From: Escherichia coli
GTDB lineage: Bacteria > Pseudomonadota > Gammaproteobacteria > Enterobacterales > Enterobacteriaceae
DNA: 64,000 bases
Assembly (NCBI RefSeq): GCF_965641715.1
Contig: NZ_OZ282453.1
Direction: 5' to 3' (one strand)
Below, one piece after another: positions 20,470 through 61,012 of the stretch. The translations under genes were made by a program, and so were the position numbers. The stretch's first letter is position 1, and each line of letters begins with the position of its first letter. The notes under the pieces are model-generated. The model made no database searches and was not told the origin of the DNA. It saw only the letters and a program-made list of their open reading frames with translations.

Positions 20470-21316
20470 GTTCCAGAATGTAGTGATTGTCACTATTGTC
20501 GGTTGGCTTGTGTTGTTTGTCTTTCTGCCCAACCTGATGATCATTGGCACCAGCTTTTTGACCCGCGACGACGCCAGTTTCGTCAAAATGGTCTTTACGC
20601 TGGATAACTACACGCGTCTGCTCGATCCGCTCTATTTTGAAGTGCTATTGCACTCGCTGAATATGGCGCTGATCGCCACCCTCGCCTGCCTGGTGCTGGG
20701 CTACCCGTTTGCCTGGTTTCTGGCGAAGCTGCCACACAAGGTGCGTCCGCTGCTGCTGTTTCTGCTGATTGTTCCCTTCTGGACCAACTCACTGATTCGC
20801 ATCTACGGGCTGAAAATTTTCCTCAGCACCAAAGGCTACCTCAACGAGTTTTTGCTCTGGCTGGGCGTTATCGACACACCAATTCGTATCATGTTCACGC
20901 CCAGTGCGGTGATTATCGGTCTGGTTTACATTCTGCTGCCGTTTATGGTGATGCCACTGTACTCCAGTATCGAAAAACTGGATAAGCCGTTGCTTGAGGC
21001 GGCGCGCGATCTCGGTGCCAGCAAGTTACAGACTTTTATCCGCATCATTATTCCACTGACGATGCCGGGGATTATTGCCGGATGTCTGCTGGTGATGCTG
21101 CCAGCGATGGGCCTGTTCTATGTGTCCGACCTGATGGGCGGTGCGAAAAACCTGCTGATCGGTAACGTCATCAAGGTCCAGTTCCTTAATATTCGTGACT
21201 GGCCGTTTGGTGCAGCTACCAGCATTACGCTGACTATCGTAATGGGCCTGATGTTGCTGGTTTACTGGCGCGCTTCTCGTTTGCTGAATAAGAAGGTGAG
21301 CGAATTAGATGATTAA
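20453..21316 (+). CDS. potB: Spermidine/putrescine ABC transporter permease
   Basis: 287-aa ORF with multiple TM helices; overlaps potA end; prophage DNA begins within about 430 bp downstream. Confidence 0.9.
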
Positions 21317-21749
21317 TCCTTTATATTCAATGCATTAAGTTTGTTTTTGAGTGGTTTTGCCGTTTAAGGTAACGACGTTATAGATCCTATCAAAATCAAT
21401 CAATTCCATTCTGGTTTTGGAGAAAGATTTTTCGAGAGCTTCGGTCTTTAACTAAAACTGATTGCGTATAATCCCAATACCCCTCCCCGACTATCTGAAT
21501 GGTCGGGGAGGCACTTCAAGCACAAAATATCATCCCTGCGCCGTTGATTACTCTGCAGGTGAAGTCGGCCACTCAATATCAGGTGCAGTTGATGTATCAA
21601 CACGGTTCAGCAACACCCGATACTTTTTCCAGGTTGTTACCAGACTCACATTCGTTCATTAATATGTCCTGTGATTTGCGTGCGGTGAGGTAGCCTTTTC
21701 CCAACCTCACCATCATCCGGCAATTTGTATTTATCACAAACGGCCTGTA

Positions 21750-24152
21750 TCAGTTGTCTGTTGCACCAACCATACCCGCAAATTTGAGCCATTGTCCTGA
21801 TGGACTTCTGTTACCGCGGTAGTGATAAACAAGGATTGCATTTGTTACTCCACCATAGTCAGCTTTATGTGATGTGGTTAAGCGAATTGTATAATCACCA
21901 TCGGGCAGGTTAAAAACTTCAATTACAGTCCCTGCTAATTCAACCGCTCCAAACCCCGTTATATTGTTGATGCTGCCCGCATTGAATCCCATCATATCGC
22001 CAAAACCAATCCAGTACTTTTTGCTGAACGCACCATTTGACCTCAGGTGGTTAATAAATGTGGACATACTCATGCCCATTTCGCCGCCAGTTATGGCTGA
22101 TGTACGTACCGAAATACTTGGCAGAGCACTACTCTTCACATAAGAGCTCAGAAGATTTATGACTTCTGTTTTCGTATAAGCATTAACGTTAGCCGCAGTC
22201 AACGTTATATCCGCAGTGCCATCAAACTTCACACCAGCAATTTCCCTTGCAGTCTGCAATTTCGTGGCACTGGCTGCGTTACCCGTTGTATCCTGATTGC
22301 CTGCCGCATTCACCCCCGGGATCAAATCTTTTACTGTATAAATCTGCGCCCAGTCCGACTCAAACCCATACTCATCCCGTGAGGAACGATAAAACAGCCC
22401 ACCATTTTTATAATTGGCCCTGATTTGCAACGTCCGGCAACTTCCACCCCCTGTATAGAAGTTTGCAACAATATAGCTGCTGCCTGTCCGGGTGACATTG
22501 TATGCACCAGATTTGGCATTCCACGGAACGCCTCCCTCTGACTCTGCGTGCACACCGGACGATCCAAGAGCAAAAGCAGAGACATCTGCAGCGGACAGCC
22601 TGATGTCTGATTTCAATGCCTTACCATTCACCTTACGACCAGATGGAACCCGGTCATTTGCATTATCATTCACCGCTTTCACCGCCATTGGTGTTGCCGC
22701 CAGCGATTCACTGTCACTGTCCGTGGCACTGCTGAGCTGTACCACCCCCTTTCTCGTCGTGCTCGCATCCTCTAGCGCCACGGCAGATGCAATATCCTCT
22801 GCCCGTTTTGCTGCTGTCTCGGCACGCGTTGCTGCAGATTCCGACGTACTTTTGCTCTGAGCTGCCGCTGTCGCACTACCAGCTGCCTCTGTCGCCTTCG
22901 TGGATGCCGTCGTGGCACTGACCTTCGCCTCTGACGCCTGTCTTACCGCCTCATCTTTTGAAGCAGACGCCGATGATGCTGATGACGCCGCCGAACTGGC
23001 GGACGATGCGGCTGCCGTTTCTGAGGCTCCTGCGCGGGTTTCCGACGCTTTCGCATTCGTCTCAGATGTCTTCGCTGCGGAAGCAGAACTCGCAGCTGCA
23101 GTGGCCTGTTCAGTGGCTTCGCCAGCCTTCGTTGTGGCTGTTGAAGCGGACGATGCAGCGCTTTCTGCCGATTTTCCGGCGGCAGCGGCACTGGCTACAG
23201 CCTCCCCTGCCTTCACTGATGCCTCACGGGCCGATGATGCAGCCGCGGTTTCTGAGCCTGCCGCAGCTGAGGCACTCTGTCCCGCTGCCGTTTCAGAAGA
23301 CCTGGCGTTCGTCTCGGACGTTTTTGCCGCTTTCGCGGAATTGCCTGCCGCTGTTGCCGAGGAAGCTGCGCTACTGGCGCTCGAGGATGCGTTCGTTTCT
23401 GATGATTTTGCCGCCTCTTTTGAAGCCGCCGCATCCCGGGCTGAGGTGGCAGCTTCTGACGCTTTCGTAGTCGCGGTGGATGCAGAAGTGGCTGCTGATT
23501 GTTGTGACGCTGCCGCATTCGTTTCTGACGTTTTCGCGGCACTGGCACTGGTAGCTGCCGCGCTTTTTGAGGACTCTGCAGCGGCAGCACTTTTTGATGC
23601 TTCAGTGGCCTTTGTTGATGCCGTTCCTGCGCTGGAAGTCGCTGACTGAGCCGACGACGCGGCCTGTCCGGCTGACGTGCTGGCTGCGCGTGCTGAGTCC
23701 GCAGCATCAGTCGCATGGGTTGCCGCCTCACGGGCTGATGTGCTGGCATCACTGGCTGACTTCTTCGCGGCTGCCGTGTTCTGTGCCACCACGGACGCGT
23801 TACGCGCCACCTCTTCCACCATCAGCTCAAAACGGCGCAGTGCCTCCGGACGGGCATCATCCTCCGTCATGGCACCGAGAAAATCATTCAGCGTACCGGG
23901 TCGGGAATCTTCATACACGGTGATGGTCCCGGCATGTGACGGCGGGAATCCTTCCACCAACAGAATAACGCTGTACTGACCGTACTCAACGTCCATGCTG
24001 TAACGCCCGGCTTCATCCGGATTTTCTGAGGCCAGCGTGTTCACCACCACCGTGGTACTGTTACGTTTTGCTTTCAGCTGGATTGTGCAGTTCTGTACCG
24101 GTTTTCCTGTGCCGTCTTTCAGTACACCTGAAATCTTTACTGCCATATTCAC
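21750..24152 (-). CDS. Phage tail fibre protein with Ala/Ser-rich repetitive shaft
   Basis: 800 aa; N-terminus MNMAVKISGVLKDGTGKPVQNCTIQLKA; long low-complexity repeat region; follows lom as the lambda side tail fibre does. Confidence 0.8.
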   Translation of the reverse strand: MNMAVKISGVLKDGTGKPVQNCTIQLKAKRNSTTVVVNTLASENPDEAGRYSMDVEYGQYSVILLVEGFPPSHAGTITVYEDSRPGTLNDFLGAMTEDDARPEALRRFELMVEEVARNASVVAQNTAAAKKSASDASTSAREAATHATDAADSARAASTSAGQAASSAQSATSSAGTASTKATEASKSAAAAESSKSAAATSASAAKTSETNAAASQQSAATSASTATTKASEAATSARDAAASKEAAKSSETNASSSASSAASSATAAGNSAKAAKTSETNARSSETAAGQSASAAAGSETAAASSAREASVKAGEAVASAAAAGKSAESAASSASTATTKAGEATEQATAAASSASAAKTSETNAKASETRAGASETAAASSASSAASSASSASASKDEAVRQASEAKVSATTASTKATEAAGSATAAAQSKSTSESAATRAETAAKRAEDIASAVALEDASTTRKGVVQLSSATDSDSESLAATPMAVKAVNDNANDRVPSGRKVNGKALKSDIRLSAADVSAFALGSSGVHAESEGGVPWNAKSGAYNVTRTGSSYIVANFYTGGGSCRTLQIRANYKNGGLFYRSSRDEYGFESDWAQIYTVKDLIPGVNAAGNQDTTGNAASATKLQTAREIAGVKFDGTADITLTAANVNAYTKTEVINLLSSYVKSSALPSISVRTSAITGGEMGMSMSTFINHLRSNGAFSKKYWIGFGDMMGFNAGSINNITGFGAVELAGTVIEVFNLPDGDYTIRLTTSHKADYGGVTNAILVYHYRGNRSPSGQWLKFAGMVGATDN
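22895..23825 (-). repeat. Imperfect tandem coding repeats inside the tail fibre gene (peptide units containing KTSETNA / SSASSA)
   Basis: KTSETNA and KSSETNA units recur at least four times in the translation; many long antisense ORFs in this interval are a by-product. Confidence 0.6.
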
Positions 24153-24210
24153 CCCACAAAAAAGCCCGCCTGAACCGGCGGGCTGTCATAACACTGTGTT
24201 ACCTGGCTAA

Positions 24211-24810
24211 TCAGAATTTATAACCGACACCCACGATGAAACCGTCAGTGCGCCAGTCACCACTGCCGGAGCCTTCATAAGCGACATCAATGGCCACGGA
24301 TTCGGTCGGGTTAAACTGCACGCCAGCCCCCCACGCCAGAGACGTGTTGCTGTGGCGACCGTCATCACTTCCGGTCAGCACGTCGTGCGTTTTCCCCTTG
24401 TTATCAGTTACGCGGAGATAATCCCCGGAAAAAGTCGACACACGGCTGTAAGCCACACCCGCCATCGCATACGCGCTGAACCATTCATTCACGCGCACAG
24501 ACGGCCCCGCCATCACGCTGAACCAGCGGTTACGCACGGAATCTTCATGCCAGCGGGTATCGCTGTAACGGGTCAGCTGGCGATTCTTGTCTCCTGCATA
24601 GCTGAACGACGTCACCATCCCCAGTGTGTCCGTAAACTCATAACGGTATTTCACGTTAATCCCGTTCAGATCATCGCTGCCGGGGACGTTCGTCGAGGCA
24701 TGAAGATAGCCCGCGCTCAGCGTGGACTGATGTTCAGACGCCCATGCAGGCGCACAGGATGCGGCCAGACAAATGGCTGCGGACAAAATGGCGGCATAAA
24801 GTTTACGCAT
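24211..24810 (-). CDS. lom: Lom-like outer-membrane beta-barrel protein
   Basis: 199 aa; signal peptide MRKLYAAILSAAICLAASCAPAWA; C-terminal aromatic residue; position between J and tail fibre. Confidence 0.85.
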   Translation of the reverse strand: MRKLYAAILSAAICLAASCAPAWASEHQSTLSAGYLHASTNVPGSDDLNGINVKYRYEFTDTLGMVTSFSYAGDKNRQLTRYSDTRWHEDSVRNRWFSVMAGPSVRVNEWFSAYAMAGVAYSRVSTFSGDYLRVTDNKGKTHDVLTGSDDGRHSNTSLAWGAGVQFNPTESVAIDVAYEGSGSGDWRTDGFIVGVGYKF

Positions 24811-24879
24811 AATTACCTCTCGCTTTTCTGCAATAAAAAAGGCACCATTTCTGGTGCCCTTATCTGGGTTATAAATATT

Positions 24880-60858: not shown

Positions 60859-60935
60859 TGGTCCGCCACCGAGGACTCGAACCTCGCACCATCAACTTAG
60901 AAGGTTGATGCTCTATCCCGATGAGCTAGTGGCGG
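60859..60935 (-). tRNA. tRNA-Arg (anticodon UCU)
   Basis: Folded by hand: acceptor CCGCCAC/GTGGCGG, anticodon loop CT-TCT-AA, T-loop TTCGAGT, 3' ACCA. Confidence 0.85.
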
Positions 60936-60936
60936 T

Positions 60937-61012
60937 TGGTGGCCCTTGCTGGATTTGAACCAGCGACCTGGCGATTATGAGTCGCTCGCTCTCACCACTG
61001 AGCTAAAGGGCC
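60937..61012 (-). tRNA. tRNA-Ile2 / Met-like (anticodon CAU), ileX/ileZ-like
   Basis: Reverse complement GGCCCTTTAGCTCAGTGG...GACTCATAATCGC...GGTTCAAATCC...GGGCCACCA; near-identical in layout to E. coli ileX. Confidence 0.85.

Follow-up and report, generated by a model that had tools for sequence, protein, structure and literature searches.

A lambda Stf-type gene in a potB-potC prophage

The window, a stretch of 64,000 nucleotides of Escherichia coli DNA (NZ_OZ282453.1), contains a lambdoid prophage that sits between potB and potC and has the gene order J-lom-stf-(tfa remnant) (Table 1). The true start of the stf-like gene is likely to be the ATG at 24146 (MAVKISG..., 798 aa), as in lambda Stf; its close relatives are 798 aa long and the alignment with PDB 9e7m begins at MAVKISG. 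The N-terminal domain matches PF08400 in Pfam (E 9.8e-72, 239.7 bits vs a cutoff of 26.6) and, in a phmmer search, the solved collar of Ur-lambda Stf (PDB 9e7m, E 9e-52), where it forms a dodecameric collar at the gpV/gpM junction (PMC12617516). By its sequence the gene belongs to the lambda Stf-type side tail fibres (PF08400 family): the PF08400 collar, the position after J and lom and the long proximal coil are all found. A cognate tfa immediately downstream is missing, tfa being reduced to a 102-nt C-terminal remnant after which the prophage end adjoins potB, but this leaves the family assignment unaffected. The window copy may nevertheless be non-functional as a fibre, because tfa is cut to about 100 nt and the tape-measure gene of the prophage carries an in-frame stop. 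In RefSeq genomes the intact stf gene is labelled a truncated pseudogene.

Table 1. Positions of the features in and around the fibre gene
Feature	Residues	Position	Strand	Basis or remark
Tail fibre assembly chaperone gene tfa, remnant (~34 codons)		21548..21649	-	RefSeq annotation, collinear ETEC1731 locus, no indels
Side tail fibre gene (stf-like)		21750..24152	-	Intact 800-aa ORF, GTG start at 24152
Variable C-terminal receptor-binding part	503-800	21753..22646	-	Sequence matches
Coil end (ALEDA) and 'phage tail fibre repeat' motif, STTRKGVVQLSSAT...LAATPMAVK	459-502	22647..22778	-	PF03406, breakpoints, AF2
48 uninterrupted heptads x-x-S-A-x-x-A	123-458 (336 aa)	22779..23786	-	Row table, periodicity, AF2 helix, lambda row homology
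KTSETNA heptad 4	361-367	23052..23072	-	Right junction of the L079 deletion
KTSETNA heptad 3	277-283	23304..23324	-	Mosaic breakpoint
KSSETNA heptad 2	249-255	23388..23408	-	Left junction of the 16-heptad deletion in locus L079
KTSETNA heptad 1	207-213	23514..23534	-
Start of helix	102-122	23787..23849	-	Heptad rows extended backwards; AF2 helix from aa 97
N-terminal collar domain	3-96	23865..24146	-	phmmer match to PDB 9e7m/9mgh, chain residues 1-94
lom-like outer membrane protein gene, directly upstream of stf		24211..24810	-	ORF list and RefSeq annotation
Central tail fibre gene J		24880..28377	-	ORF list and RefSeq annotation of collinear loci
Spurious antisense ORF, 249 aa, homologous to lambda 'orf206b'		22900..23649	+	ORF list, shuffles
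Spurious antisense ORF, 170 aa		22958..23470	+	ORF list, shuffles
Spurious same-strand off-frame ORF, 179 aa		23213..23752	-	ORF list, shuffles

Downstream of the coil, PF03406 matches aa 464-502 (E 3e-18) and the AF2 helix stops at aa 463. The C-terminal part is 77% identical to the tail fibre of phage Cyrano and also matches the Mu S/S' fibre (PDB 8ju3), gp37_C (E 2e-6) and phrog_6722. This C-terminal allele is rare: the 5' part has a match in 4914 of 5426 complete E. coli genomes, but at least 80% of the gene is covered in only seven.

The heptad array and its structure

The original prediction described the shaft of a tail fibre, rich in Ala, Ser and Thr, and both points hold, the stretch lying in an 800-aa ORF with PF08400 and a 48-heptad coil and consisting of these three residues to 71% over the predicted coordinates (aa 110-420) and to 73% over the full array. 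The extent then given, 22895-23825, covers most of the array but stops 38 residues (about 5.5 heptads) short of its end and begins 13 residues upstream of its start, and the building block is a seven-residue coiled-coil heptad rather than a longer tandem repeat based on KTSETNA. Amino-acid identity peaks at each multiple of seven residues (z 6.9-10.2, with 10.2 at lag 7) and this autocorrelation does not decay out to a lag of 63 residues, while the Fourier peaks of the array protein lie at 3.5, 2.33 and 7 residues. A single register is kept over 336 aa and is continuous with hydrophobic a/d residues upstream, L105, F108, V112, V115, A119 and V122 being in register with columns 4 and 7 of the array. 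The array thus has the 3.5-residue, in-register periodicity of a coiled coil, but not the large hydrophobics (L, I, V) that are canonical at a and d: position a (column 4) is Ala in 34 of the 48 rows, position d (column 7) is Ala in 46, and Ser stands beside a in 36. It lacks P, L, F, M, C, W and Y altogether, has a single Ile and 3% Gly, and classical hydrophobic core residues occur at its two ends only (aa 105-122 and 454-460). The array works like a coiled coil with a core of the alanine-zipper type. A near-pure Ala/Ser core is atypical among coiled coils.

The motif K[TS]SETNA does recur as predicted, four times (aa 207, 249, 277 and 361) against a chance expectation of about 0.01 calculated from column frequencies, and 'SET' occurs eight times, each time in the identical heptad position. 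As a repeat unit it had to be rejected, since its copies are irregularly spaced at 6, 4 and 12 heptads and nothing beyond the heptad stands out against row shuffles: row lags of 1 to 39 all stay within the row-shuffle null (|z| < 2.4), and the best pair of three-row blocks (76% identity) lies within the null maximum.

What the flagged DNA encodes is, very probably, the proximal shaft of a side tail fibre of the lambda Stf type, an alpha-helical coiled coil. The AF2 monomer, computed as a single chain with no alignment and used for secondary structure only, is helical from aa 97 to 463. Its mean pLDDT is 68.8 and its pTM 0.27, and the helix folds back at aa 255-269 and 391-394, which is probably an artefact of modelling a monomer; a similar problem is described for full-length AlphaFold3 models (Yu et al. 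2025, PMC12617516). The same stretch might instead be a low-complexity Ala/Ser/Thr linker, intrinsically disordered and without defined structure, as could be suggested by its extreme composition, by the just moderate AF2 confidence and by the Pfam search of the protein, in which no model covers the array. Yet disorder would conserve neither a strict heptad register over 336 residues nor insertions and deletions in whole heptads (see below), the array is free of Pro and predicted to be all helix, and the homologous segment of Ur-lambda gpStf (residues 102-393) is seen by cryo-EM and cryo-ET, with AlphaFold3, as a rod-like trimeric bundle, the proximal coiled coil (Yu et al. 2025, PMC12617516). 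We therefore regard a disordered linker as very unlikely. Some databases label relatives 'PPE-repeat protein'.

The parallel trimer of E. coli Lpp-56 is an alanine zipper with Ala at the a and d core positions, in which flanking hydrophobic layers provide stability. An arrangement of this kind would explain how the coiled-coil shaft is stable with an Ala/Ser core, although Lpp has few Ala layers against the roughly 48 consecutive Ala/Ser-cored heptads here; the two are not known to be related in sequence.

Length variation and exchange between prophages

As predicted, fibre length varies among related prophages. Among 77 IMG/VR loci the number of heptad rows is 48 in 58 loci, 46 in one, 33 in five and 32 in one, while alternative distal shafts have 32 rows (six loci) or 31 rows (six loci). 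The change is in whole heptads: relatives of the window stf differ by 2, 15 or 16, which would follow from the protein tolerating only whole-heptad changes because its function depends on helix register. A 14-aa deletion lies in the array of P0003 and a 16-heptad deletion in L079 joins KSSETNA heptad 2 to KTSETNA heptad 4; the junctions of the 42-nt and 336-nt deletions show microhomology and are in register. Insertions or deletions that change the length are rare, comprise whole heptads and sit at short microhomologies. Two singleton database variants (P0057 and P0019) carry indels of +3 or -3 residues, so that breaks of register may occur in rare cases, although these variants may also be sequencing errors.

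Whether such variation reflects repetition in the DNA itself, as the original prediction held, can be judged from the nucleotide sequence. In 21000-26000 the only hit of Tandem Repeats Finder (minimum score 30) is an unrelated 9-mer at 25738, and the 1008-nt array contains no exact direct repeat of at least 14 nt; the longest run of bases shared between KTSETNA copies is 11, and over 81 nt the identity among the four copies is 46-59%. The prediction had named a lack of nucleotide periodicity as evidence against it. A 21-nt signal is in fact present (z 3.2-5.9 vs codon shuffles), but it disappears once the amino acids are held fixed, similarity beyond the protein amounting to z -0.64 to +0.68 against synonymous-codon shuffles at lags of 21-126. 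The protein sequence explains all of the 21-nt periodicity. Indeed, equivalent heptads use unrelated codons, with a choice as random as codon usage allows, and the array holds no repeated DNA able to drive intragenic homologous recombination. Recurring protein motifs, length variants among relatives and indel junctions at short in-register similarities might all suggest a VNTR or contingency locus, in which slippage or unequal crossing-over tunes fibre length on short time scales. Such a locus is hard to reconcile with the repeat searches, with the poor nucleotide identity of the motif copies, with a periodicity owed wholly to the protein and with the constancy of the array, which has exactly 48 rows in most related loci and in alleles up to 13% divergent (e.g. 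K-12 stfR). The idea is already largely refuted and we consider it highly improbable; rather, the shaft is a clean case of strong protein periodicity without DNA repetition.

What the shaft DNA does undergo is exchange between alleles. Its sequence identity across thousands of E. coli prophages is about 92-94%, and a 315-nt segment specific to the long (48-heptad) form is present in 3593 of the 5426 complete E. coli genomes, so that about two thirds of them have this form. Within the array the four-gamete test is violated by 38% of the informative site pairs, a minimum of at least 60 recombination events is required, and a PHI-like permutation test gives p < 0.001. Homology breakpoints fall into clusters at gene nt 356, 845-848 and 1427-1512, most of them at the post-coil motif (1427-1512). 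Nucleotide homology to many E. coli prophages stops at KTSETNA heptad 3 (gene nt 845-848), which is also where two alternative shaft families part. The frequent recombination pairs alleles of different prophages in register; in addition, one receptor-binding end is traded for another at the shaft borders. The prediction that the region is recombination-prone is thus borne out as heavy exchange between prophage alleles, but not as intragenic recombination driven by repeats. Shaft DNA serves as a homology platform, permitting in-register recombination between prophages and replacement of the receptor-binding end at its borders. Lambda Stf residues 1-393 or 1-528 fused to fibre ends of P2, K5, K1F or KL106 give working particles (PMC11338833), and the whole-heptad rule together with the three breakpoint regions provides design rules for chimeric Stf fibres of chosen length.

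One might further ask whether shaft length is a selected, heptad-quantised trait with preferred values. Arrays of close E. coli relatives, a sample that is not phylogenetically independent, cluster at 46-48 and 31-33 rows. At least five different sequence routes lead to the short class, namely two different 15-row deletions (the lambda type and another in L045) that both give rise to the 33-row class, the 16-row deletion in L079 and the two alternative distal shafts. If selection were at work, fibre reach could be tuned to an object of fixed size, for example the central fibre or a layer of O-antigen or capsule. Two length classes across the whole family are unsupported by a crude survey of 92 diverse family representatives, where rod lengths, approximated by the stretch free of Pro and aromatic residues, vary almost continuously from under 35 to 380 residues. 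A strict 'heptad walker' demanding hydrophobic residues at a and d was dropped for this purpose, as it stopped early and returned 14 rows for the window protein itself. All in all, selection for preferred lengths seems unlikely. Literature searches found no paper on heptad count or its variation.

Related fibres, proposed role and overlapping frames

Lambda Stf resembles the window protein in its collar domain, its position after J and lom, its heptad pattern and register (rows 1-26 and the last six align one to one), its KTSETNA heptads and its post-coil PF03406 motif. It differs in having 33 rows, the window shaft being 105 residues (about 16 nm) longer, in an intact tfa where the window has a remnant, and in its unrelated C-terminal part, which is T4 gp37-like and OmpC-binding in lambda but Mu S/S'- and Cyrano-like here. 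With StfR of the K-12 Rac prophage and the family that RefSeq names 'prophage tail fiber N-terminal domain-containing protein', the window gene is collinear and gapless over nt 1-1494 (92.6% identity), so that the 48-row shaft is shared, and the C-terminal module differs from about aa 498 onward. The 48-row form is also that of ev099, mEp460 and Salmonella phage SPF_0923. The phage Mu fibre S/S' (PDB 8ju3, 5yvq) shares the post-coil motif and aa 525-608 and 691-783 but has neither the PF08400 collar nor the 48-heptad Ala/Ser shaft; the latter two segments occur in the opposite order in 8ju3_A, a chain named as an S + S' fusion, so this order is possibly meaningless. The window shaft is an ordinary, already described structure whose lambda homologue has been visualised before, and as the same 48-heptad form as K-12 StfR it carries little weight as a discovery.

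For Ur-lambda, and for it only, Stf is known to be a homotrimer with four fibres per virion at the gpV/gpM junction (PMC12617516). By analogy, three chains of the window Stf would attach to the tail via their N-terminal collar domains and zip into a parallel trimeric rod, nucleated by L105, F108, V112, V115 and V122, that would run on for 48 heptads with core positions that are almost all Ala and Ser adjacent to them. At about 0.1485 nm per residue this amounts to some 50 nm. The rod may serve as a passive spacer between the tail and the exchangeable receptor-binding module at the C terminus, which would then meet the cell surface ahead of the central fibre J.

The predicted long spurious ORFs on both strands of the array are indeed present (249 and 170 aa on the plus strand, 179 and 82 aa on the minus strand), and frames equally long are open in shuffled sense sequence. 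It is possible to imagine that one of them is a real gene, the 249-aa antisense ORF being the main candidate: its frame runs for 249 codons without a stop, its sequence is conserved with that of lambda orf206b (68% identity in 192 aa) and its pN/pS of 0.18 is near the 0.15 of the sense frame. The pN/pS values cannot serve as a ground for dismissing it either, since the wobble positions of its frame (a1) coincide with those of the sense frame, and a low antisense ratio is therefore expected. What speaks against a gene is that codon and heptad-row shuffles of the sense sequence give mean open frames of 224 codons (p = 0.32) and 203 codons (p = 0.13), that the product would be a low-complexity string of A, D, F, V and S, and that the sense frame runs on into two recognised domains. 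A real antisense gene is thus most improbable, and the long off-frame ORFs are by-products of composition; even frame a2, which codon shuffles made look unusually open (p = 0.004), is unremarkable when heptad rows are shuffled instead (p = 0.17). Gene calling and curation both go wrong in the shaft region, antisense ORFs being annotated as genes in lambda (orf206b) and ev099, which could be taken in favour of the candidate. Many assemblies break within the shaft region.

The flagged repeats and the coiled-coil shaft

The original prediction described the flagged stretch, which lies in an stf-like gene (table below), as a tail fibre shaft built from imperfect tandem repeats. At the DNA level this description fails, and the supposed repeats are coiled-coil heptads. 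Run with a permissive score, Tandem Repeats Finder returned no matches in the stf-like gene, exact direct repeats of at least 14 nt are absent from the 1008-nt array, and the four KTSETNA units differ in their codons: their longest run of shared bases is 11, and over 81 nt they are 46-59% identical. A 21-nt periodicity is present in the array DNA (z 3.2-5.9 versus codon shuffles), but it is lost against synonymous-codon shuffles in which the protein is fixed (z -0.64 to +0.68) and is only a shadow of the protein heptad. Since this signal vanishes with the protein fixed and no longer period exists, nucleotide-level repeat periodicity is in essence absent.

Features of the window in and around the fibre gene
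Feature	Position	Strand	Source
stf-like side tail fibre ORF, 800 aa, containing the flagged stretch	21750-24152	-	ORF list
Heptad array, aa 123-458	22779-23786	-	
Lom-like gene, upstream of the stf-like ORF	24211-24810	-	ORF list
J-like gene, upstream of the stf-like ORF	24880-28377	-	ORF list
C-terminal segments matching PDB 8ju3_A	within 21753-22646	-	
tfa (tail fibre assembly chaperone) remnant, ~34 codons, in region 21317-21749	~21548-21649	-	
Tape-measure gene	30757-34110	-	
In-frame stop in the tape-measure gene	32164-32166	-	
tRNA-Arg(tct) and tRNA-Met genes, side by side	60859-61012	-	

In the protein, the stretch is indeed rich in Ala, Ser and Thr, which make up 73% of aa 123-458 (37.5%, 23% and 12%), while Pro, Leu, Phe, Met, Cys, Trp and Tyr do not occur there. 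It consists of 48 successive rows of seven residues, x-x-S-A-x-x-A, with zero register shifts, column 3 being Ser in 36, column 4 Ala in 34 and column 7 Ala in 46 of the 48 rows. Amino-acid identity peaks at all multiples of 7 (z 6.9-10.2 versus shuffles), undiminished to lag 63, and the Fourier spectrum has peaks at 3.5, 2.33 and 7 residues. No period longer than the heptad was found in the array, as no row lag among 1-39 stands out, and the top match between 3-row blocks (76%) falls inside the row-shuffle null, giving no higher-order repeat. KTSETNA does recur as predicted: K[TS]SETNA is present four times in the protein and SET eight times, always in identical row columns. By our arithmetic from column frequencies, about 0.01 copies of K[TS]SETNA would be expected by chance, and 28 of 150 diverse representatives of the family also have the KTSETNA heptad. 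This is a non-random, old and conserved variety of heptad, not a repeat unit.

The array register runs on upstream into L105, F108, V112, V115, A119 and V122, classical hydrophobic core residues (800-aa numbering; lambda-style numbers are lower by 2). Since these share columns 4 and 7 in continuous register, those columns of the array take the a and d positions. AlphaFold2, run on a single chain, places a helix at aa 97-463 (mean pLDDT 68.8), with two low-confidence fold-backs that we read as probable monomer artefacts, and the lambda side tail fibre (Stf) aligns with the window protein row by row, with 33 rows in the same register. In Ur-lambda, gpStf comprises a collar (1-91), a linker (92-101) and a trimeric proximal coiled coil (102-393), followed by a hinge and a distal part, and the virion carries four trimeric Stf fibres that contact the cell surface (OmpC) ahead of the central fibre (Yu et al., Sci Adv 2025, PMC12617516). 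Together, register, model, lambda alignment and the Ur-lambda description argue that the flagged region is the predicted proximal coiled-coil shaft of an Stf-type fibre. At ~0.1485 nm per residue, its 336 residues would span ~50 nm, ~16 nm more than in lambda. Structurally such a shaft is well understood: lambda's has been described before, and most E. coli genomes carry one.

The N-terminus carries PF08400 ('prophage tail fibre N-terminal'; aa 3-136, E 9.8e-72), and aa 3-96 align with the collar of the Ur-lambda side tail fibre, a domain of solved structure (PDB 9e7m, E 9e-52). From this alignment, and from the 798-aa length of relatives, translation probably starts at the ATG at 24146 (MAVKISG). 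The Lom-like and J-like genes lie on one side of the ORF and potB and potA on the other; in collinear RefSeq loci, a lambdoid prophage of ~42 kb occupies the interval between potB and potC. Two tRNA genes are found within the prophage (table), and the related prophage of ETEC1731 carries four different ones (Gly, Thr, Lys, Ile) clustered beside the antiterminator Q gene.

Shaft length and recombination

We fetched 80 IMG/VR loci with the window's N-terminal domain and scored 77, three being cut by contig ends. Variation in fibre length, as anticipated, is real among these loci and occurs in whole heptads.

Shaft forms among the 77 scored loci
Rows	Loci	Form
48	58	Window's own form
46	1	42-nt deletion between AATSA...AATSA
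33	5	Lambda type, plus a separate 15-row deletion in one locus (L045)
32	1	336-nt deletion in L079, KSSETNA(249) fused to KTSETNA(361)
32	6	Alternative distal shaft A, splitting off right after the third KTSETNA
31	6	Alternative distal shaft B, splitting off where A does

A further relative (P0003) has 14 residues fewer, and two singleton database entries differ by +3 or -3 residues. Of the seven indel events observed, five are exact multiples of 7 residues; we calculate a chance of ~1e-3 for this under arbitrary in-frame lengths. The 48-row form also occurs in phages ev099, mEp460 and SPF_0923 and in K-12 stfR (Rac prophage). Of 5426 complete E. coli genomes, 3593 contain a 315-nt segment that only the long form has, and 97, mostly laboratory strains, contain the lambda-type junction. 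In 50%-identity representatives covering the whole family, lengths of the rod free of Pro and aromatic residues form a near-continuous range from <35 to 380 residues, the window protein having the maximum. In the distant relative HdK1 (Nonagvirus; L086 1501-5167), PF08400 and shaft lie on two overlapping CDSs, reflecting a frameshift or a programmed shift; heptad periodicity is seen in its shaft too, along with KTSETNA/KASETNA heptads and a core richer in Leu and Val.

That the shaft is recombination-prone stands for exchange between alleles and falls for events within the gene. There is little support for homologous recombination inside the gene, since the gene offers no repeated DNA. Matches at the junctions of the observed shaft deletions span just a few bases, as is typical when slippage or illegitimate recombination is filtered by selection for register. 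Exchange between shaft alleles, in contrast, is pervasive. In a set of 55 distinct alleles of 48 rows, the four-gamete test fails for 38% of informative site pairs, compatibility is much higher between neighbouring sites than between permuted ones (p < 0.001), and at least 60 recombination events are required inside the array. Homology to other E. coli prophages stops at gene nt 356 (collar end), 845-848 (third KTSETNA) and 1427-1512 (the PF03406 motif). The median number of matching places per genome is 2, and the maximum 14. In engineering work, the lambda Stf N-terminal part (1-393 or 1-528) takes foreign receptor-binding ends (PMC11338833).

Off-frame ORFs and annotation

The long ORFs in other frames are spurious, as proposed: shuffling sense codons or whole heptad rows reproduces them, their lengths being unexceptional in all frames under at least one appropriate null (p = 0.13-0.59), and they follow from the GCN/TCN/ACN-rich codons. 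The 249-aa antisense ORF, whose lambda counterpart is the annotated orf206b, has a pN/pS of 0.18 versus 0.15 in the sense frame, a low value that is expected since the two frames share their third codon positions. Equivalents of these ORFs are annotated as antisense 'hypothetical protein' genes inside the stf coiled coil in lambda (NC_001416 orf206b, L084 2004-2624 (-)) and ev099 (gp23 and gp24, L085 2004-2866 (-)); in the ev099 RefSeq record they replace the shaft, which has no sense annotation. In the closest RefSeq genomes, PEC41 and ETEC1731, NCBI's PGAP calls the first ~1490 nt of the intact 800-aa ORF a pseudogene 'missing C-terminus' and leaves the C-terminal 300 aa unannotated despite 77% identity to the tail fibre end of phage Cyrano. 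Family proteins P0004-P0120 are mostly 'partial' and at contig ends, which fits assembly breaks in a multi-copy region, and some are plainly misnamed ('PPE-repeat protein', 'short-chain fatty acid transporter').

C-terminal part and condition of the prophage

Past the coil lies PF03406 ('phage tail fibre repeat'; aa 464-502, E 3e-18), and the C-terminal part, besides its likeness to Cyrano, resembles the Mu S/S' fibre (PDB 8ju3). Here aa 525-608 and 691-783 match 8ju3_A residues 323-406 and 218-308, in opposite order, which could mean that domains were swapped or are repeated, or could stem from the engineered S/S' fusion in 8ju3. Downstream of stf only the tfa remnant is left, and the prophage adjoins potB directly past it, a junction shared with other lineages, O104:H4 included. 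It is possible that the fibre cannot assemble unless another prophage supplies the chaperone. The in-frame stop (...GNELLQ*RQGLV...) divides the tape-measure gene into two ORFs, 648 and 464 aa long, and points to either a sequencing error or a prophage that is defective. E. coli PEC41 carries the identical stf allele in another prophage, beside prfC (L081 22507-24680), followed downstream by a tfa remnant, a frameshifted recombinase, possibly the invertase relic of an invertible fibre segment, and a TIR-domain protein and reverse transcriptase that probably form a defence system.
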